Notes: generated by a model from the sequence alone, not told the origin. Positions 4,696 to 34,311 are shown, counted from the first letter of the stretch. The stretch is 64,000 nucleotides of DNA from a virus (IMGVR_UViG_3300029422_000001:46744-110743), one strand, 5' to 3'. Program-made: numbers and translations.

Positions 4696-5226
4696 ATGAG
4701 AAGGAGATTTTTTAATGCTGCGGATAATTTCGTGGGAGGATGTTATAATAAGTTATCCAATGAAGATATAAAAAGGCTTGGAGGAAAAAGACCTTATGTA
4801 TGTCAGTTTAATAAAATTCATATACATATAGGACCTGTATTAAAAGATCATGATTCTGATGTTAGTTACATAATGTTTAATAGTGATTGGAATAATGGTG
4901 GTTATGAATCTATGGTTTATAATCATAGCAATAATGGTATTTTTATATTAGGTGAAAACAAAATTGGTAACATAGAAGATCATATACAAGATCTAACATA
5001 TTGGTACGAATATGATCCAAGCATTAATGAAAATCAATGTTATTTTTATTATGAGGCTAATAACAGCGGAAATGCTATCAAGTTGAATGGTGAGTTTAGT
5101 GATACCAGTACTGTTTTCAACATTCCCAGCTTGGAAGTCTCCACTCTTCGTGATGGCAGTTTGAGTTTTCCGGAGATTTATATAGAAGGAATTTGGGATC
5201 CGTCATTGTATAAGTCGGTTTTGTAA
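4696..5226 (+). CDS. Small protein with MRRRFF N-terminus (paralog 1 of 3 MRRRF genes), intact
   Basis: ATG at 4696, 3 nt after the stop of the giant ORF, preceded by AAGGAG. The track ORF 4687..5226 uses an upstream GTG. The N-terminal MRRRFxN...GG motif is shared with the ORFs at 20640 and 21263. Confidence 0.6.
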   Translation: MRRRFFNAADNFVGGCYNKLSNEDIKRLGGKRPYVCQFNKIHIHIGPVLKDHDSDVSYIMFNSDWNNGGYESMVYNHSNNGIFILGENKIGNIEDHIQDLTYWYEYDPSINENQCYFYYEANNSGNAIKLNGEFSDTSTVFNIPSLEVSTLRDGSLSFPEIYIEGIWDPSLYKSVL

Positions 5227-5252
5227 TTAACTTTGCAAAAAAGTTAATTACA

Positions 5253-7511
5253 ATGGGTGTCAAATGTCAGATAGAAAAAAAGGAAAATGAAATAAAACGG
5301 GTTAAGGCTCCTAACGGGGAGCCTTCCGTTCTTTACGAAAGTGCTTTAAAAGTATTAGGAAACAGCGAGCGGGCTCTTCAGGTATGGGCTAAGGCTTACA
5401 CTCCGGGTTTTTTGTCGTATTACGGTCATTGGAATAACCCGGCTCCAGGGGAGATGTTTAACACCGATCCCAATGGCGAACCTCTTTTAGAAGATGTGCT
5501 GTCGTATATGAAGCGTCAGACTTATTTTGCTGATCCTTTAACGGCTCAGGATGTTAAGGATGTAAGGGATTTCCTTTTGTCTACTCATTATTTTTTCAAT
5601 GCGTCTTCATTGTCTAATGCTATTCTCTTCGATTTTTATGTAGATGGCAGTTTGATACTGAATGAGCAGAAATTAAGGAGATCCGGTTTGTATGATGAAA
5701 CAGAAATAAGTCGTATTTTATCCGATCCTTCTGTTTTAAACGAGGTTTCGACTTCCATGAGAAAGTTAATAGATTCTTCTATTAACGAACATGATAGGGA
5801 AAAAGATAATTATTTTATGTCTATTGACTATCAGTATGGTCCTATTGTTTACAAGGAGGGAGTGTTTAACCAATTTGGTAAAAAAGTACCATATAATCCT
5901 TCTGAGCTTTATTATGCTATGCGTAAAACAGTAGCCGGCATAAAAAACTTTTCTGAATTTTCATCTGCTTTTGAATCGTTGAGAAACTCATACCCTGAAC
6001 TGGTTGAGAAATTCGTTTCTGATAAAGAATTTGCCGAATCTATGTTTGATGAGTTCTCATCTACGAATAAGATTCCGGTAATAAACATAGAAGGGGATGA
6101 TGTGGTGGAAGGCAAGAGAAGATCCTTATCTAAGCTACAAGATCTGTCTTATTACAATCCTGGCAAAATAGAGTTCCTAAGAGCTCGTATATCAGCTTAT
6201 TTACATAGGGCTAATGCCGACACCGAATCTGATTTAAGAAGCATGATATGGGATATAGAAGAGGCTTGTACGTGGTTTGGCATAGATATAATAGGGACAT
6301 CGGAAACTTATGATGGCACAGAAGAATCTTTGAATAAGATAGATAATTTGATGCTGGATCTTGATATTTATGTGGCCAGGCATAATGATGTAAATTATGC
6401 TCCAACGCTGGCATCTTTTATAGATGATGTTCTTGGTGATAGCACAGATTATTATTCTGAATTATTGCCGGAGTATATGGATAATTTGAATATCGTTTAT
6501 TCTGAATCCGATATAGACCCAGTAGAAGCGTTTGAGAAACATTCATTGCTTAAGGTAGGAGATAATCTATATCAAAGGATCAGCAAAGATGATATTAACG
6601 AGATGTATCAAATATCAACAGTGTTAGCCAAGCACAACCTAACTCATTTTTCTACTAAAATATATCCTGAATCTTGTTTTAAGAACGGCGTTTTGGATAA
6701 AGAGAAAGTACGGAACGTAGATAATAATACGCTCATGGATTCCATTAAAAAATACGTCAGATCGTTCATGGATTCTCAGAACACAGAGGACATGATAATG
6801 ACCAGGATGGCGTTTGGGCACCCGGAGGTACTTGACGTTCCTTACGTGGATGTGGATCGGGAGTATAGTCGATACATGAACAAAAAACAAGATAGCGAAA
6901 ATCCATTATCCTTATTCGATTTATACCAATCTTACCTTGACAACAAACTCCATAAAACAAAATTATATGATAATGCCTATAAGTATCTTGACTTCAAACC
7001 TGGTCCATCTTTGGGCCTTATTTCTGATGATCCTGATATTTTGAAATCAATAGAATTATCTTTATCTGGAAAAGACAGGTTGATGTTGTTTGATTATAGC
7101 ATGACCAGTACCGACCCTTCTTTATCAGAATTGTTTTATTTGGAGAAGTATGACCCTTCGTATGCCGGGAATGATTTTGAACACTATTTTTACACCAGGC
7201 ACCCGTATTTGTTAAAAGAAAAATCGGGCCCTAATATCGTAGAGCAAGATGGTGTTATAACAGCCGAAGGTATTTATGATAATTTTATAAGAGTAGGTAA
7301 TAAGATATGGTCTAAAGTAAGCGAGAGTAGTTCCGGCTCTATCTACCAAAATCTGACAGGAACCGAATCGGAGGTGAAATACGATTCTACCCAGAAGGCT
7401 AAGACGGTAGAAACTGATTACGCTCCATACCAAAACAGATCTGGCTTGACGCAAGATATGATCGTAAGCAAGTCTGAATTGGATGATCTTAACAAATTAG
7501 AATGCAGGTAA
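5253..7511 (+). CDS. Large hypothetical virion protein (752 aa)
   Basis: Uninterrupted 2259-nt ORF in the same orientation as the flanking giant genes. No recognisable catalytic motif. Confidence 0.75.
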   Translation: MGVKCQIEKKENEIKRVKAPNGEPSVLYESALKVLGNSERALQVWAKAYTPGFLSYYGHWNNPAPGEMFNTDPNGEPLLEDVLSYMKRQTYFADPLTAQDVKDVRDFLLSTHYFFNASSLSNAILFDFYVDGSLILNEQKLRRSGLYDETEISRILSDPSVLNEVSTSMRKLIDSSINEHDREKDNYFMSIDYQYGPIVYKEGVFNQFGKKVPYNPSELYYAMRKTVAGIKNFSEFSSAFESLRNSYPELVEKFVSDKEFAESMFDEFSSTNKIPVINIEGDDVVEGKRRSLSKLQDLSYYNPGKIEFLRARISAYLHRANADTESDLRSMIWDIEEACTWFGIDIIGTSETYDGTEESLNKIDNLMLDLDIYVARHNDVNYAPTLASFIDDVLGDSTDYYSELLPEYMDNLNIVYSESDIDPVEAFEKHSLLKVGDNLYQRISKDDINEMYQISTVLAKHNLTHFSTKIYPESCFKNGVLDKEKVRNVDNNTLMDSIKKYVRSFMDSQNTEDMIMTRMAFGHPEVLDVPYVDVDREYSRYMNKKQDSENPLSLFDLYQSYLDNKLHKTKLYDNAYKYLDFKPGPSLGLISDDPDILKSIELSLSGKDRLMLFDYSMTSTDPSLSELFYLEKYDPSYAGNDFEHYFYTRHPYLLKEKSGPNIVEQDGVITAEGIYDNFIRVGNKIWSKVSESSSGSIYQNLTGTESEVKYDSTQKAKTVETDYAPYQNRSGLTQDMIVSKSELDDLNKLECR

Positions 7512-24181: not shown

Positions 24182-24891
24182 GATCGCTCCTCCTTGTTTT
24201 TAGATTCTGCTTCTTCGAGTATGCTAATTACTTTGTCAACAATATCTGAATCGGACATCTTCTCAATAAAAACATCCATTGCCTTAGTTATGTCATTGGC
24301 TTCTTTTTCTTCAAAAGCTATTTCTCCACCGGTAATAGCATCAGATAATGATGTAGATAAGTGTCTTATCTTATCAATGCTCATAAACGTAAATGGATTA
24401 CCACCTTGACCCCCACCCATTTCTTTCATGATCTGATATCCACCTGAGATAAGTCTGCCTGATGTCGTGGCCAAAGAGGATACGATTAGGGACAGTACCG
24501 CCGCTTCCGTCCGCTCCTCGGACACGCCCTTCGACCACACGGCTGCCCTTATAGCGCCGGCCAGGTCGTCTATGTATGGCATGAGGCAATCCTCCATCGC
24601 TTGTGTTATATCAGCTATAACCTCACTACGCTCTTTATTTATGTAGTAGATAGAAGCATTGTACTTCTTTATCTCTTTGTCCATGTCATTTAAAAGACGT
24701 TTGATATTGTGCTTATACATAGGACTGGTTTTAATTACCTCCTTTAGCTTAAGAATGTAATTATAAGCCTGGTCGTTTACGAATAACGTCATGGTCTCAA
24801 CCGTTGAATGAAGCGTGTTGAGACTGTTAAGAATCTTATCGAAATTGTTTATCAAATAAGCTTTTCTGGCTTTTGCTGCATAGTTAATCAT
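24178..24891 (-). CDS. Hypothetical protein (237 aa)
   Basis: ORF, minus-strand array. Confidence 0.6.
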   Translation of the reverse strand: MINYAAKARKAYLINNFDKILNSLNTLHSTVETMTLFVNDQAYNYILKLKEVIKTSPMYKHNIKRLLNDMDKEIKKYNASIYYINKERSEVIADITQAMEDCLMPYIDDLAGAIRAAVWSKGVSEERTEAAVLSLIVSSLATTSGRLISGGYQIMKEMGGGQGGNPFTFMSIDKIRHLSTSLSDAITGGEIAFEEKEANDITKAMDVFIEKMSDSDIVDKVISILEEAESKNKEERS

Positions 24892-25426
24892 CGCATTCGA
24901 ATTTTAGATTTTCAAGTTCATGTATTTGTAACCTAAGAGACTTAATTAAATTCGTTCTCTGTTCCTCTGCATGTTTTAAAGCCTCTTCCTTGCTTTCAAA
25001 AGCACAATCCCCTATCTGATAAGGGGTGTAACGACCAGGGGTGTCGGCTAATAAAAGACCACCACAATCTTCTATTCTGGCTTTTACCTTTCTTATTTTC
25101 CCATCTTTTAGACACATGTCTGTAACCCATACGAATTTACCATATAATTTACCATACTCTTCTGATCTCTCTTCTTGCAATTCATACCATTTAGGCTTAG
25201 GAAATCTTAATGTGAATCTAATTTCGGTATCTTTCTCTAAGACATTAATATCATACGCCTCCGGCCACAGTTCTTTTATGCTGTCTTCGTCTTCGGCATA
25301 CGCTACAAGTATGAATGAATCATCGGATTCACCACTACACCAATATGGATATTTTATAGGCCATTTGACTGGACGGTAGTCATTACCGCAGTCGGATTTT
25401 TTAATGTAAAATCTTGCTCTAATCAT
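24884..25426 (-). CDS. Hypothetical protein (180 aa)
   Basis: ORF, minus-strand array. Confidence 0.6.
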   Translation of the reverse strand: MIRARFYIKKSDCGNDYRPVKWPIKYPYWCSGESDDSFILVAYAEDEDSIKELWPEAYDINVLEKDTEIRFTLRFPKPKWYELQEERSEEYGKLYGKFVWVTDMCLKDGKIRKVKARIEDCGGLLLADTPGRYTPYQIGDCAFESKEEALKHAEEQRTNLIKSLRLQIHELENLKFECDD

Positions 25427-25433
25427 ATCGTTA

Positions 25434-25745
25434 TTAATTTAATAATTTTTCTATTTTAATTGATTTTGATGATAGATACATATTCCATGTTCCTCTGCCT
25501 CTATCACCTTTTTCGTTTTGTTTTTGGATTGTCAAGTACAGATCTCCGTCTTCACATACTTCAACTTTTTTCAAGAAGCCTATCATTTCATCTCCTGCTT
25601 CGTGTAAAATACGGATCTTATCTCCTTCTTTTAACCCATAATTGGAATCAAAATATTCTTTTTTGATTCTATCAATGTTGTCTTTATGTTTTTTTATAGC
25701 ATAAAGCTCTTTTCTTAATAAATAATTTAGTTGTTCTATTGTCAT
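25434..25745 (-). CDS. Hypothetical protein (103 aa)
   Basis: ORF, minus-strand array. Confidence 0.5.
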   Translation of the reverse strand: MTIEQLNYLLRKELYAIKKHKDNIDRIKKEYFDSNYGLKEGDKIRILHEAGDEMIGFLKKVEVCEDGDLYLTIQKQNEKGDRGRGTWNMYLSSKSIKIEKLLN

Positions 25746-26966: not shown

Positions 26967-27323
26967 TTATATTACTCCTTCCAAATTTACTTTAATAGAA
27001 CCATTTATGGTTTTAATGCTCCCATCTATGGTTGAAATCACATCATCTATATCATTTATAATACTTTCCATGTCATCAACCACCTCCTCCATATCAGTTA
27101 CAGCCTGATCTGATTCCCAATATCTTTCTGAGTCTTGTAACGATTCCGGTATATTATCTCTCGCCTCAGTCTCTTCGTCTAAAATCATATCAACATCATC
27201 TTTGGCTGAATTTATGTTGCACTTCAACTCCGATAACTTTGATTTGATGTATTCAAAATCTGTTTTATACTTATTTACGTTGTTAATAACATCCGATATT
27301 TTTTTTCTTCTCTTGTTGTTCAT
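26967..27323 (-). CDS. Hypothetical acidic protein (118 aa)
   Basis: ORF abutting the helicase gene. Confidence 0.5.
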   Translation of the reverse strand: MNNKRRKKISDVINNVNKYKTDFEYIKSKLSELKCNINSAKDDVDMILDEETEARDNIPESLQDSERYWESDQAVTDMEEVVDDMESIINDIDDVISTIDGSIKTINGSIKVNLEGVI

Positions 27324-28741
27324 GCTTTTATCCTATTATAATATTCTATAACCTTTTCTTTTCTATCTCCTGGTTTTACTGCCATATTCTCAGCCAAGAA
27401 CCTAAAATACGACACCGGTATGTCCTTGAATCTAATTCCTTCATATTTTCCAAACCACATTATTATACTATCAAGATCGTCTTCTCTCCTACCATCTCCA
27501 TTCACAGATTTAAGCGAGGCTGCCCGACGAAGGATCTCGTCTTTGGTAATAATATCACCCATCCTTATATTAGACAGAAGTTGATCGCCAGCAAACATAC
27601 ACCAGCCCTTAGAAGGGAATTGCTCGATTGTCAGGTCTTCTATCCGACCAAAGCGTCTCATGTTGTCGCAGCAATCAACTATCAGCGCCTCTTTCTTGTC
27701 AGGATGGATGCGGACGGCGCGGCCTAATATTTGGTAATAAGTTGAATATGAGAAAGTTGGTCGACCAAACATCACACAATCAAGTTCAGGAAAATCAAAT
27801 CCGGTAGCAAGCGTTGAATAATTAAAAACCACCTTCAACTTACCTTCTTTGAAATCGGATATGATTTGCTCTCTTTTCTTTTTGGTTGTTAGCGATGTTA
27901 CGACACCGGTTATGGCTCCCATCCTGGCATTCATGAACTCTGATATTCTATTACATGATTCGATAGAATCCATGCAAACCAAAATGGCTTTACGCTCGTT
28001 CATAAGTTGAAGAAGGCGCTTGTAGATAGAGTTGTTTAAGCCGTTTCGTACAATACTTTCTTTAATAGATTCGTTGGTGTATTCGGCTCCGGTACTGTTT
28101 AACATCAGAGCCGATTCATCAAACGACCATCGTTCGTACTTAAGTGGACACCAAAACCCTTGAGAAGTTAGTTCTTGTATTTGAGTCACATGAACTATTT
28201 TCTTGAAGAAGTTATGCTCGTCTTTCGTCAGCATATTGAGCTTGCTATAGTTCCCTTCCAGCATGGAACTGTAGGTTCGGAGGCGGCAGGGAGTGGCGGT
28301 GAAGCCCAGTACCTTCGCCTCTGGGAACCTGTTCATAAACTCCATAAATTCAGAACCTTCTTCAGGAGAATATCCTGAATGACATTCGTCTATCAATAAG
28401 GTATCTATCCCTATATCCTTCAACCTCGCTACATCTTTCTTTATGCTCTTTAATGTTGCATAAGTCATAGCCGACAGCTCCTTTATACCACATGAAGCAG
28501 AATATATAGTAGGTTTAGAACCGAATGATACGGCCTTTGCATAATTCTGCTCCAGAATCTCTTTTGAGGGCTGTAATACTAATGTCGGTCTATTTATTTC
28601 ATGTGCTATCTTGGATATCAGAAGGCTCTTTCCACATCCGCATGGGGCTACGATTATGCCAGGCTTCTTAGATCTTCCTGTAAGAAACTTAAGCCCGGCA
28701 TCTACTGCTTCTTTTTGGTAAGGTCTAAGTTCAAAGCCCAT
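27320..28741 (-). CDS. SF2 DExH-box helicase (473 aa)
   Basis: Motif I APCGCGKS, motif II LLIDECH, motif III GFTATP, motif VI YQILGRAVR. Confidence 0.85.
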   Translation of the reverse strand: MGFELRPYQKEAVDAGLKFLTGRSKKPGIIVAPCGCGKSLLISKIAHEINRPTLVLQPSKEILEQNYAKAVSFGSKPTIYSASCGIKELSAMTYATLKSIKKDVARLKDIGIDTLLIDECHSGYSPEEGSEFMEFMNRFPEAKVLGFTATPCRLRTYSSMLEGNYSKLNMLTKDEHNFFKKIVHVTQIQELTSQGFWCPLKYERWSFDESALMLNSTGAEYTNESIKESIVRNGLNNSIYKRLLQLMNERKAILVCMDSIESCNRISEFMNARMGAITGVVTSLTTKKKREQIISDFKEGKLKVVFNYSTLATGFDFPELDCVMFGRPTFSYSTYYQILGRAVRIHPDKKEALIVDCCDNMRRFGRIEDLTIEQFPSKGWCMFAGDQLLSNIRMGDIITKDEILRRAASLKSVNGDGRREDDLDSIIMWFGKYEGIRFKDIPVSYFRFLAENMAVKPGDRKEKVIEYYNRIKA

Positions 28742-30989: not shown

Positions 30990-31142
30990 AATGCTTGGTC
31001 AGTTCTTCTGGTTCTAAATCTTGTCCAAAATCCATGTTAAAAATATCGTAATTAGTAAAGCACTGTTCCTGCCGGCAGGAAATCTATGAATGCTGCTTTT
31101 ATTTCTTCAATTAGGCCCAAGTGTAACCTTGGGCCATTGTAT

Positions 31143-32843
31143 TTATTTTTTGTCATCTCCTTTTAGCTTCTTTAAAGTATCTGCAATCGGAAGCTGATCA
31201 ATGACTCCCAATGCCGGAGCGACGGTCTTGACAACATTGTTAAGGAAATTACCGGTACTGTTCTGACCGCCGTCAAATACTGTGATATTTCCGAGGTTAA
31301 TGTGCTCAAATGCCTTAACCTGTTCTCCGGCAATTTCTTTCCACTGATTAACCATCTTGTACTGGATGGCGATCTGAGGATTGGATTCTGCTGCTTCCAC
31401 CATGGCCTTAAATCCGTCGGCTTCTGCCATTAACGACTTTTTCTTACCTTCGGCTTCTGCCTCCAGCTTCATCTGAATAGCTTTTGCCTCCGCCTCAGCT
31501 CTTGCCAAATGTGCTGCTGCCTCAGCCTCAGCCCGGCGTTTGATCTTCTCGGCCTCGGCATCAGCTTGCAAGATAGCCTCTTCCTTCTGGGTTTCAGCCG
31601 GCACAATCTTTTCAGCCTTAAGCGCAGCCTGAACTTTCTTAGCCTTAGCTTCTTCCACTTCTTTGTCGGCAAGCTCTTTTGCTGTTTTTACAGCCGCTTC
31701 CGATTTAACTTTTTCTTCTCCGGCCTTCTTCTCTGATTGAGCTTTGATGATCTGTAGTTCTGATACTGATACAGCAACCTCCTTCTGGGCATTGTTGTAT
31801 CCTATAGACGCATTTTTCTCAGCCTCAGCCTTCTTAATCTGAGCTTCAGAGTCTTGTATTGCTATAGCTGCTTCCTTGTCAGCTTCAGCCTTATTCTTTC
31901 CGACTTCTTCCATTCTTTCAGCCTCGGCTTTATTTACTTCAAGTTCTGCCTTAGATCTTACGATCGCCGATTCCTTGTCGGTTAAAGTTTTTGCGATAAC
32001 CGCAGCCCTGTCTCTATCTGCTTGAGCTACACCGATCTGTTTCTCTTTGTCGGTTAAAGCTAAAGCTATTTCTTTTTCTTTCTTCGTTTCAGCTACTATT
32101 GTCTCCTTTTCTTTTTCAGTACAAGCAATTTGAATCTCTTGTTCTTTTTTGGTATTAGCCACAGCCGTTTCTTTTTCCTTCTGCTGTACAGCAATTTTAA
32201 TAGCACCCAGCTTCTCCTGTTCTTCGATATTAGCCTGTGCCTCGTTCAGAGCCCTACTTTCAGCTTCCTTACCAAGGTTCATAATATAACCGGCTTCGTC
32301 TCTGATGTCACTGATGTTGATGTTCAGGAGGTAAAGACCTAACTTGTTAAGCTCGTTATCAATGTTCTTTCTCGCCTTATCCAAAAACTCATCCCTGTCA
32401 GAATTAAGTTTTTCGATTGTCATTTCAGCAATAATCAAACGCATCTGACCGTAAACGATGTCCGTAATAAGATTTTCAGTAGATTCGGTATCCATCCCCA
32501 AAAGTCTTTCTGCCGCATTTTGCATGATCTCTGGATTTGTACTGATAGCTACTGTAATGGTCGTAGGTACATCTACTCTAATATTCTGAGATGACAAAGC
32601 ACCGGTAAGCTTGCAATCTATTTGCATAGGCTCCATTGACAAAACATCATAGCTTTGAATAATAGGCAAGACAAATGCCGCTCCACCATGATATAATTTC
32701 GCCGATTTCTTTTCCCCACCTGTCTTACCGTAAACGACCAAGACCTGATTAGGTTTACATCTACGATACCTTGATAAGACTCCGATGATTGTCAAAATAA
32801 TCACTACAGCTAAGATAGCTGACACGTACATGATTATTGTCAT
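31143..32843 (-). CDS. Flotillin-like SPFH/band-7 protein (FloT/YqiK type, 566 aa)
   Basis: N-terminal TM helix, SPFH core, then a long EA-repeat coiled coil (AEAE..., KAEAEK...), the flotillin-domain hallmark. Confidence 0.8.
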   Translation of the reverse strand: MTIIMYVSAILAVVIILTIIGVLSRYRRCKPNQVLVVYGKTGGEKKSAKLYHGGAAFVLPIIQSYDVLSMEPMQIDCKLTGALSSQNIRVDVPTTITVAISTNPEIMQNAAERLLGMDTESTENLITDIVYGQMRLIIAEMTIEKLNSDRDEFLDKARKNIDNELNKLGLYLLNINISDIRDEAGYIMNLGKEAESRALNEAQANIEEQEKLGAIKIAVQQKEKETAVANTKKEQEIQIACTEKEKETIVAETKKEKEIALALTDKEKQIGVAQADRDRAAVIAKTLTDKESAIVRSKAELEVNKAEAERMEEVGKNKAEADKEAAIAIQDSEAQIKKAEAEKNASIGYNNAQKEVAVSVSELQIIKAQSEKKAGEEKVKSEAAVKTAKELADKEVEEAKAKKVQAALKAEKIVPAETQKEEAILQADAEAEKIKRRAEAEAAAHLARAEAEAKAIQMKLEAEAEGKKKSLMAEADGFKAMVEAAESNPQIAIQYKMVNQWKEIAGEQVKAFEHINLGNITVFDGGQNSTGNFLNNVVKTVAPALGVIDQLPIADTLKKLKGDDKK

Positions 32844-32874
32844 AACTTTTAAAATTTAATTGTTGATAAAAAAA

Positions 32875-33369
32875 TTAGATACTTAATTCTCCTTCTTCAT
32901 ATTTTATATTCACCTTGTCACCGTTTTTGTAGGTTTTTCCAGACAAGCATCTTACTCTCATTTGCTCCTGTCTTCCATTTTTCGAAATATTTACCATATA
33001 ATGATTCTTCCCTGATCTAAACACTATCTCCACTTCTCTTCCATTTAAATCTTCCGGACATTCGTACACCATTTCTTGCTTTAACTTAAGAAGTAACTTA
33101 TATACGTAAAACAAAACGATAAAGAAAAGCGACCCTATCACAACCCCTACTAAATGGGAACCCGAAAAGTAGGTAGTCCAGCTATATCCAAGAATAAAAT
33201 GTGTTATGCCCTTGAATGATATGATGTCCGACAAAGACATGCTTAAATCAGAAGCACTGTCAATGTCAATATCCGTATCCAGATCAGATCCTAATATCGA
33301 CAACAAAAACTGTATAACAAAAGCAAATGACGCTATTAAAGCCATGCATAAAATTATGTCACTTCCCAT
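32875..33369 (-). CDS. NfeD-like membrane protein (TM helices + C-terminal OB-fold beta-barrel), cognate partner of flotillin
   Basis: 2-3 predicted TM segments. C-terminal GREVEIVFRSGKNHYMVNI...GDKVNIKYEEGELSI beta-rich tail. Gene order NfeD then flotillin as in bacterial operons. Confidence 0.7.
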   Translation of the reverse strand: MGSDIILCMALIASFAFVIQFLLSILGSDLDTDIDIDSASDLSMSLSDIISFKGITHFILGYSWTTYFSGSHLVGVVIGSLFFIVLFYVYKLLLKLKQEMVYECPEDLNGREVEIVFRSGKNHYMVNISKNGRQEQMRVRCLSGKTYKNGDKVNIKYEEGELSI

Positions 33370-33610
33370 ATCCTTCTGTTATTATTTTGTAAACAAGATC
33401 AGTCATATCTTTGATGGTCTCCATATCATAATCAATAATAACAATATTGAATTTTTGTTCCACCATCACATCAAGCTCAATCCGATCAACAGAATCTAAT
33501 CCAAGTTCTTTAAACGACACATCTTCTTCATGAACTATATCTATTTCCGAATTAAGAAACTGAGTAATAATTATATCCTCTATTATCTTTCTGATTCTTA
33601 CTTTTTCCAT
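33359..33610 (-). CDS. Acyl carrier protein-like (83 aa)
   Basis: FKELGLDSVDRIELVMMVEQKF matches the ACP phosphopantetheine-site motif (LGxDSLDxVEL) with a conserved Ser. Confidence 0.6.
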   Translation of the reverse strand: MEKVRIRKIIEDIIITQFLNSEIDIVHEEDVSFKELGLDSVDRIELDVMVEQKFNIVIIDYDMETIKDMTDLVYKIITEGYGK

Positions 33611-34311
33611 TGCTTTCTAATTTTGTTAAATAAGTATGTTTTTATGTTTTTCAATCTCTCTTTGTCTGTTTCAGAACTTCCGGTAAATAAATAATCCGGA
33701 TTGCCTTTAGCCGGCGGCGTAGGCAATTTAGATACGGCAAACAACCAATCCATTTCCTTATTCTTCTTAGGCTCCAAATAAGGCTCGGTAGCGATCTTAA
33801 ATTTTTCAGCTATTAAGTCAAAGAGCTTTGAATTTTTAAGGTTCATATGAACTGAAAAAGTTTGAGAAGGCGGTTTCCATATGAAGTTACATAAGCTCAT
33901 TGTATAATCTCCTGACTCTGCTATATAAGATTCCGTTACCTGAAGTATGACCTCTTTCTTGAATGAGGTGTTACCCATAAACCAACACAATCTGGATTCT
34001 GCTTCTTTTCTGCTGACACCTATGTCTTTTGAATATGATTCGTACATTCCTATCATAATCTTCAACGTTTCCAGAACCTCGTCTGTCATTTCCGGTGTCT
34101 CTATATAATTCACAAAAGACGTTCCCTTGTTGGTCAATCTCATCACGCCTGATTTTAATTTCTCAACCAGGCCAAGCTCTATATACCTCCCAGCATCTTC
34201 TTCTGGCATAGCTTCGATCATAACCGAATCCTTCTGTCTTATGGCAAGAAGATTGGCAAGATCATTAGGGGTCATGTCTGATGCTGCAAGTTGTCTGAAA
34301 TTGATGTACAT
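33598..34311 (-). CDS. Hypothetical protein (237 aa)
   Basis: ORF, minus-strand array. Confidence 0.55.
   Translation of the reverse strand: MYINFRQLAASDMTPNDLANLLAIRQKDSVMIEAMPEEDAGRYIELGLVEKLKSGVMRLTNKGTSFVNYIETPEMTDEVLETLKIMIGMYESYSKDIGVSRKEAESRLCWFMGNTSFKKEVILQVTESYIAESGDYTMSLCNFIWKPPSQTFSVHMNLKNSKLFDLIAEKFKIATEPYLEPKKNKEMDWLFAVSKLPTPPAKGNPDYLFTGSSETDKERLKNIKTYLFNKIRKQWKK

Follow-up and report, generated by a model that had tools for sequence, protein, structure and literature searches.

Why should a bacteriophage carry a flotillin gene, where did it come from, and do the two small genes in front of it belong to the same unit? These questions are raised by positions 31143-33610 of a 64,000-nucleotide stretch of viral DNA (IMGVR_UViG_3300029422_000001:46744-110743; the whole stretch is called the window here), where three open reading frames (ORFs), all on the minus strand, encode proteins of 83 aa (33359-33610), 164 aa (32875-33369) and 566 aa (31143-32843). 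An earlier note, made from the sequence alone, had read them as acyl carrier protein (ACP), NfeD and flotillin, and had proposed that the three form one module that remodels host membrane domains or lipid metabolism. The explanation that we favour, with moderate confidence, is a two-gene NfeD-like/flotillin operon, captured once from a Bacteroidaceae-like host and conditionally useful to the phage, which stands beside a separate phage ACP gene. The features that this argument needs are the following.

31143-32843, minus strand: flotillin (FloT/YqiK-type SPFH protein), 566 aa, assigned from its Band_7 and Flot domains and its Bacteroides/Phocaeicola identity
32760-32843, minus strand: N-terminal membrane anchor of the flotillin, residues 1-28 (Kyte-Doolittle windows >1.6; layout as in the Bacteroides homologue)
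32211-32756, minus strand: SPFH/Band_7 domain, residues 30-211 (PF01145; coordinates confirmed by translation)
31434-32201, minus strand: E/A/K-rich putative coiled-coil region, residues ~215-470 (composition; length-polymorphic among strains)
31167-31496, minus strand: C-terminal Flot domain (PF15975), residues 450-559 (Pfam)
32875-33369, minus strand: predicted divergent short NfeD-like partner, 164 aa, with three transmembrane (TM) helices and a C-terminal OB fold
33067-33369, minus strand: membrane part of the NfeD-like protein, residues 1-101 (AlphaFold2 (AF2) helices 2-25, 52-69 and 72-101; acidic D-x-D-x-D and S-F-K-G-x-x-H-F motifs)
32878-33063, minus strand: predicted OB-fold domain of the NfeD-like protein, residues 103-164
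33359-33610, minus strand: acyl carrier protein-like gene, 83 aa (PP-binding, phrog_5934), a neighbour of the flotillin cassette and not part of it
33491-33505, minus strand: LGLDS motif with the predicted phosphopantetheine-attachment Ser40 (translation; subclade invariance)
33598-34311, minus strand: 237-aa ORF translationally coupled to the ACP gene (ORF; context gene)
31042-32871, minus strand: segment that the commonest flotillin-less allele lacks, with the flotillin gene, the hairpins 3' of it and a 34-aa ORF (15 IMG/VR contigs)

The three ORFs recur across hundreds of metagenomic contigs and are under purifying selection, so that they cannot be put down to chance. The window matches GenBank OR575929 ('phage csAssE-Sib') at 96.5% identity. 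This is the record of a 151-kb phage from the human gut, in which the ORFs of 83, 164 and 566 aa are called 'acyl carrier protein', 'transmembrane protein' and 'flotillin family protein', respectively. The phage has been described under the name crAssE-Sib and placed among the epsilon crAss-like phages, in the proposed genus Epsilonunovirus; phages of its lineage encode a repressor and anti-repressors, and may be able to persist in their hosts (PMC11054128). Nowhere does the text of that paper mention flotillin, acyl carrier protein or membrane (PMC11054128), and our literature search found no paper joining flotillin with crAss-like phages. The lineage abounds in gut metagenomes (at least 1000 contigs carry one and the same ACP variant), and flotillin-like genes are rare in phages at large, with a match of any kind in 11 of 50,697 GenBank phage records. 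On the same strand lie a DnaB-like helicase, a PD-(D/E)XK exonuclease, a primase/helicase and other replication genes (Pfam, PHROG and OR575929 annotation). The earlier note was right, therefore, on the gene order and coordinates, on the replication-gene setting and on how unusual such a locus is in a phage.

The flotillin assignment also held, since both domains scored above their Pfam cut-offs: Band_7 (PF01145) with 91.7 bits against 23.6 (E 7.6e-26), and Flot (PF15975) with 38.1 bits against 27 (E 1.9e-9). Between them, residues 215-470 consist of 57% E+A+K with 1 Pro in 256 residues, a composition from which alone the coiled coil was called. The protein is co-linear with E. coli YqiK across its whole length (23% identity, E 1e-20), and falls well below the Bacillus FloT equivalog model (NCBIfam NF058507), which it matches at profile positions 4-274 only with 144.4 bits against a cut-off of 700. 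It thus belongs to the flotillin family and is orthologous to the Bacteroidaceae flotillin, without being a FloT equivalog. Its length ranges from 408 to 595 aa across strains, owing to in-frame indels limited to residues ~300-460, that is, to the coiled coil; among 120 relatives the SPFH domain was free of indels, and the C-terminal domain was never gapped either. We found no tandem repeats of note in the coiled-coil DNA, and the length variation is therefore not simple repeat slippage.

The origin of the pair can be read from its bacterial counterparts. A scan of one genome per prokaryotic species yielded 30 loci in Bacteroides, Phocaeicola and other Bacteroidales with a full-length flotillin match (62-66% identity by tblastn); in local alignments, the phage and Bacteroides/Phocaeicola flotillins are 66-71% identical. 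In B. xylanisolvens XB1A, a 165-aa TM-OB gene 34% identical to the phage partner (E 1e-28) lies directly upstream of flotillin; this locus contains no ACP, and its upstream neighbour is a divergently oriented housekeeping gene. The same pair was found on a metagenomic bacterial contig, amid housekeeping genes and again with no ACP. The phage partner, too, lies directly upstream of flotillin in the same orientation, across a 31-nt gap, and this arrangement recurs in the phage subclades and on Bacteroidales chromosomes, while the longer order 237-aa ORF, ACP, NfeD-like gene, flotillin is common to both phage subclades. The resemblance to NfeD2-FloT and YqiJ-YqiK that the earlier note had pointed out is thus borne out as an arrangement, with a TM and OB partner directly before flotillin, and the phage pair is homologous to the chromosomal pair of Bacteroides/Phocaeicola.

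The two genes also appear to have diverged together. Identities are 82% for flotillin and 62% for the partner between phages, 74% and 48% between Bacteroides and Phocaeicola, and 66-71% and 35-45% between phage and bacterium; the partner has diverged about twice as much as flotillin, and all comparisons fall on one trend. In a neighbour-joining tree (distance-based and with few outgroups), the phage flotillins were monophyletic and sister to those of Bacteroides plus Phocaeicola. Because the phage flotillins form one clade in that position, one host-to-phage transfer would suffice, and the simplest reading of the sequences is that the pair derives from a single old capture, from a Bacteroidaceae-like host lineage, by an ancestor of this epsilon crAss-like lineage. 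The 66-71% flotillin identity also points to Bacteroidaceae as the likely host range of a phage group without a cultured member.

Once captured, the pair has been kept under selection. In 80 close strains compared with the window, the ratio of nonsynonymous to synonymous polymorphism (pN/pS), calculated pairwise against this one reference so that the values are not phylogenetically independent, was 0.044 for flotillin and 0.075 for the partner, next to 0.042 for DnaB and 0.054 for the exonuclease, and 0.31 for the ACP. Between subclades, where synonymous sites are saturated, pN was 0.11 for flotillin and 0.09-0.15 for the replication genes. In the strains that carry it, then, purifying selection acts on the pair as strongly as on the replication genes.

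The pair is nevertheless dispensable. When contigs were sampled through the flotillin-independent 237-aa gene, 23 of the 78 that had enough flank (29%; the figure is rough, because the sample was limited to the 80 best of the 203 IMG/VR contigs that matched, and one data set supplied most of these) carried no intact flotillin, and the junctions of these losses fall into at least 10 classes. The commonest deletion joins 32872/32870 to 31041/31044 at an A/T-rich microhomology and spares both the NfeD-like gene and the ACP; in two variants the whole NfeD-like gene has gone as well, and in a third part of it. Further independent flotillin deletions were seen in Logan contigs, one of them, in the other subclade, with a 9-nt microhomology. 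Because both subclades carry the pair, these absences are secondary losses, and about 29% of the sampled strains have therefore lost flotillin through many independent deletions. Some deletions have created in-frame chimeras, in which the N-terminal membrane part of the NfeD-like protein runs into the C-terminal region of flotillin. Such fusion ORFs are located in three related contigs (L117 5001-5480, L118 2912-3676 and L119 5001-5765; proteins P0027, P0028, P0031 and P0034).

What the pair might do can be sketched by analogy with its bacterial homologues. Flotillin is usually the second gene of an operon, after nfeD; the NfeD OB fold binds FloA; and the NfeD-FloA complex of methicillin-resistant Staphylococcus aureus keeps unfolded proteins stable at the membrane with no need of ATP, a property important under stress or energy depletion (PMC11222466). 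By this analogy the phage pair would be transcribed together with the replication-gene block, both proteins would insert in the host cytoplasmic membrane, flotillin would oligomerise via its coiled coil and its C-terminal domain, and the NfeD-like partner would dock on it with its OB fold, as in bacterial FloA-NfeD and FloT-NfeD2. The complex may then add to the host flotillin or replace it in the ATP-independent stabilisation of membrane and unfolded proteins and in the control of membrane fluidity, and might in this way keep productive an infected, possibly persistently infected, energy-stressed cell. Such a benefit would be host- or condition-dependent, and a conditional benefit would explain why strong constraint in carriers goes alongside frequent loss.

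Several points weigh against this explanation. The proposed mechanism is modelled on homologues; the host presumably has a flotillin pair of its own, so that the use of an extra copy is not obvious; and the frequency of flotillin loss shows that the benefit is not a general one. To these must be added the shared reference behind the pN/pS values and the narrow sample behind the loss frequency, both given above, and the poor recognition of the middle gene by existing profiles, to which we return below.

The constraint and the losses could also be accounted for by conflict with the host, although we think this doubtful. The phage flotillin would then be a mimic that co-assembles with host flotillin or displaces it, redirecting or disabling host membrane microdomains, and could in this way exclude superinfecting phages, block defence or abortive-infection effectors associated with the membrane, or alter the homeostasis of envelope proteins. 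The high similarity to host flotillin (66-71%) extends over the oligomerisation regions; accessory conflict genes typically combine strong constraint where present with repeated loss, as is seen here with at least 10 independent deletions; and the in-frame variation between 408 and 595 aa is limited to the coiled coil. Fluctuating selection in such a conflict would explain both the presence/absence polymorphism and the variable coiled-coil length. However, a flotillin pN/pS as low as 0.044 shows ordinary purifying selection and no sign of diversification, neither the SPFH nor the C-terminal domain varies in length, and the locus matches no PADLOC defence model, for which reason we also dropped the idea that it is a defence system.

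We would give a similarly small chance to a broader version in which the pair is a conditionally advantageous persistence/conflict factor of epsilon crAss-like phages, held by balancing or fluctuating selection, with the coiled-coil length tuning the geometry of the SPFH assembly. The advantage would lie, for example, in a carrier or pseudolysogenic state, in excluding superinfecting phages or in neutralising membrane-associated host defence. If this were true, the natural strains with and without flotillin would be a ready-made experiment on bacterial flotillin function.

The favoured explanation, a captured two-gene operon, also requires the middle gene to be a genuine partner of flotillin. 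We believe that the 164-aa ORF is a divergent short NfeD of the YuaF/NfeD2 type, missed by current hidden Markov models (HMMs), an identification that structure prediction, synteny and transitive homology together make probable. The AF2 model (mean predicted local distance difference test (pLDDT) 73, ~85 in the C-terminal domain; built on a shallow alignment of 7 sequences) has three TM helices and a small beta domain. This predicted architecture, a membrane-anchored N-terminus followed by a C-terminal five-stranded OB fold, is that expected of a short NfeD. A profile search extended the family to 408 proteins of ~170 aa, and in 58 members residues D31, D33, S51, K53, G54, H57 and F58 are nearly invariant. 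Against the PDB, a profile of the OB domain alone found YuaF as its best natural full-domain match (E 0.0027), followed by 2exd (E 0.052) and 3wwv (E 1.2). Its top matches, the designed repeat proteins Cake and Bagel, were dropped because they match only by repeating one short motif, and a full-length family profile returned nothing but spurious TM-helix matches to ErbB2. BFVD includes a 175-aa relative (36% identity in an alignment of 175 columns) whose annotation reads 'NfeD-like C-terminal domain-containing protein'.

The library HMMs give no such support. Searches of Pfam, NCBIfam, PHROGs and PADLOC with the 164-aa protein gave no match; the Pfam NfeD model (PF01957) gave none at E <= 0.1, and the Pfam YqiJ model did not match it either. 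Only 1 of the 58 sampled members of the wider family reaches Pfam NfeD, at 6e-5. With hhalign against single E. coli sequences, the alignments were co-linear but weak (YbbJ, probability 15%, E 0.0018; YqiJ (DUF1449), 1.3%). It might be argued that the middle ORF is not related to NfeD at all, but encodes a small membrane protein of other descent whose OB fold is generic and whose gene merely lies next to flotillin. We regard this as quite improbable, since the synteny with flotillin is held across Bacteroidales and phages and the two genes co-diverge, YuaF is the best natural full-domain sequence match in the PDB, the relative at 36% identity is annotated as NfeD-like, and architecture and size fit short NfeD proteins. 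The NfeD assignment of the earlier note is accordingly left in two halves: on the Pfam NfeD search it formally fails, while structure, synteny and transitive homology support a divergent NfeD-like protein. There is an annotation gap here, as the GenBank 'transmembrane protein' of 164 aa and its Bacteroidota-type family of more than 400 members would best be labelled NfeD-like. More than 400 family proteins (alignment A3, P0170-P0310) carry D-x-D-x-D, S-F-K-G-x-x-H-F and a C-terminal OB domain, and the Pfam NfeD and YqiJ models miss nearly all of them.

The ACP is a genuine phage carrier-protein-like gene, as the earlier note had supposed, and it behaves independently of the flotillin/NfeD pair. 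PP-binding (PF00550) scored 26.5 bits against a cut-off of 20.8, phrog_5934 ('acyl carrier protein') was matched at 2.1e-8, and the predicted pI is 4.35. The LGLDS motif, which fits the carrier-protein pattern (D/L)-G-x-D-S and contains the predicted phosphopantetheine Ser, is invariant across phage subclades whose ACPs share just 34-39% identity. The best score with the NCBIfam AcpP equivalog models was 28-29 bits, far below their cut-offs of 70-92, which makes it a divergent carrier-type protein and not an AcpP orthologue. No other GenBank phage has a counterpart. The nearest GenBank phages by DnaB, Cellulophaga phi17:2 and phi4:1 (29% identical), have no flotillin or ACP match, and are too remote for testing whether ACP and pair are conserved together; the search for ACP homologues was filled by near-identical phage variants and gave no distant context.

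The earlier note took ACP, NfeD and flotillin for one module that remodels the lipids or membrane domains of the host and might, for example, provide the scaffold of replication or assembly factories. This proposal has some points in its favour. The genes are tightly packed, the ACP overlapping the NfeD-like gene by 11 nt; their order is held in both phage subclades; they sit inside the replication block; and the virions of Erwinia jumbo phages hold both an SPFH-domain protein and an ACP, with no linkage reported between the two (PMC7760394). Set against this, no bacterial pair locus examined contains an ACP, and the ACP was kept in 23 of 23 flotillin-less contigs, including those also without the NfeD-like gene. 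Its constraint is several-fold weaker (pN/pS 0.31 against 0.04-0.08), with five premature-stop codons and two alignments with gaps that are not multiples of three in 79 strain comparisons (strains L033-L112). No phosphopantetheinyl transferase, acyltransferase or lipid enzyme is annotated in the 151-kb OR575929. On these grounds the ACP is separate from the pair and its membership of a module has to be given up. An essential factory scaffold, moreover, should not be deleted in ~29% of strains, so that an essential role in replication or assembly is unlikely, and we consider the three-gene module as a whole quite improbable.

Most likely, the ACP works in a separate function with the 237-aa ORF, which it overlaps by 13 nt and to which it is translationally coupled. 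This ORF, a possible partner of the ACP and equally conserved, always accompanies it in relatives and has a pN/pS of 0.051. It had no family match in Pfam, PHROG, NCBIfam or PADLOC, its only GenBank phage homologue is in crAssE-Sib, and its single-sequence AF2 model (pLDDT 35) was unusable.

That the pair is functionless host DNA on its way out, as the recurrent deletions with junction microhomology and the fusion ORFs left behind could suggest, is very hard to believe, and a neutral passenger is in fact excluded by the selection data, because the pN/pS values of 0.044 and 0.075 equal those of essential replication genes, both subclades have kept the pair despite saturated synonymous sites, the monophyletic and deep-branching phage clade implies long retention, and the flotillin indels are in frame and confined to the coiled coil.

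The region 3' of flotillin holds two further features.

31114-31135, no strand assigned: G+C-rich palindromic hairpin (GGCCCAAG...CTTGGGCC), 8 nt past the flotillin stop, with a stem of 8 pairs; the scan places it on the opposite strand
31052-31156, minus strand: small ORF of 34 aa here and 50-52 aa in relatives, sharing 14 nt with the 3' end of flotillin and lost with it in the common deletion

A second G+C-rich palindromic hairpin, TTCCTGCCGGCAGGAA, also lies 3' of the flotillin stop, both being within 31045-31135. Neither has a U tract in the orientation of the gene, and both are inside the segment removed by the common deletion. A scan for sigma-70 promoters and terminators gave nothing above the shuffled expectation, the sigma-70 consensus being unsuited to Bacteroidota promoters. 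Some strains carry an insertion of ~360 nt just downstream of the flotillin locus (related contig L141 6002-6246, plus strand; the point corresponds to 30976/30978 of the window, which itself is without it). It matches the Rfam HEARO RNA (RF02033, IscB-type omega RNA) with 94.4 bits against a gathering threshold of 83 (E 4.6e-20), with no long ORF alongside. As a driver of flotillin loss this insertion was rejected, its presence in 8 of 23 flotillin-less and 8 of 55 intact contigs not being significantly different (p = 0.064).

Other parts of the genome vary as well. In a related contig (L117 7882-10335) the helicase has 817 aa and a Hom_end_hint domain, while that of the window has 473 aa (27320-28741), which suggests an intein insertion polymorphism. 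In crAssE-Sib, a DNA (cytosine-5)-methyltransferase gene (OR575929 113296-114423) lies between ORFs of 180 and 102 aa; their equivalents in the window, 24884-25426 and 25434-25745, adjoin, and the methyltransferase appears to be absent (~25426-25434, judged from coordinates and not from an alignment). Downstream of the dGTP diphosphohydrolase gene, two related phage contigs (L113 13180-13707 and L114 12880-13707) differ in what they carry at the same position, a TnpB/IS605-type gene in one and, in the other, a NAMPT/NAPRTase gene (NAD salvage), so that this position is another variable accessory hot spot of the lineage.

Part of this picture is not new, since the flotillin and ACP labels stand in GenBank OR575929 and phage SPFH proteins were already known. 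New are the recognition of the partner as NfeD-like, the derivation of the operon from Bacteroidaceae, the separation of the ACP from the pair, and the polymorphisms in presence/absence and in coiled-coil length. The function of bacterial flotillin/NfeD pairs is still debated, and a full host-type flotillin operon that is maintained by selection and yet cleanly deleted in many strains offers near-isogenic natural variants for studying the role of flotillin in infection.

Among known systems, HflK/HflC-FtsH and phage lambda CII are the classic link of a host SPFH complex to the lysis-lysogeny decision; HflK/C is host-encoded and acts through the FtsH protease. The comparison is relevant inasmuch as the crAssE-Sib lineage encodes a repressor and anti-repressors. 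Unlike HflK/C-FtsH, the phage pair shows no sign of a protease partner, and its NfeD-like protein would be of the short form without a protease domain. Every phage paper that we found treats the role of phage SPFH proteins as unexplained, in words such as 'poorly understood' or 'unclear' (PMC7760394, PMC13239085). Those of RaK2-like jumbo phages and of other phages are lipoproteins or SPFH-domain proteins; a full flotillin with a Flot domain and an NfeD partner has not been reported for them, nor has a host-derived operon or a population polymorphism been described.

The T5-like Vibrio phage KIT04 (LC487410) has a 'flotillin family protein' 29% identical over the SPFH half and a small multi-TM protein immediately before it, but it belongs to an unrelated phage family with another host and gives no evidence of recent host origin. 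Its small protein (L202 2680-2928) has 82 aa, about three hydrophobic segments, a DLDD acidic loop and no OB domain, and may be a truncated NfeD/YqiJ-like membrane partner. In E. coli, yqiJ-yqiK resembles the phage pair in having a membrane protein with a C-terminal OB fold upstream of a flotillin of ~550 aa, whereas YqiJ (DUF1449) itself is unlike the phage partner by hhalign and Pfam, as seen above. From Bacillus subtilis yuaF (nfeD2)-floT (yuaG) and Staphylococcus aureus nfeD-floA, the phage pair differs in its flotillin score (144 bits against the FloT cut-off of 700) and in the failure of its partner to match Pfam NfeD. The greatest likeness is to the chromosomal pair of Bacteroides/Phocaeicola (e.g. 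B. xylanisolvens XB1A, contig L013 4471-4968 and ~4990-6641), which consists of the same two genes in the same order and orientation, with a partner of 164-165 aa. In contrast to the bacterial pair, which is flanked by housekeeping genes, the phage copy is located in a replication block, after an ACP gene and the 237-aa ORF, with a coiled coil of variable length and a presence that is polymorphic among strains.

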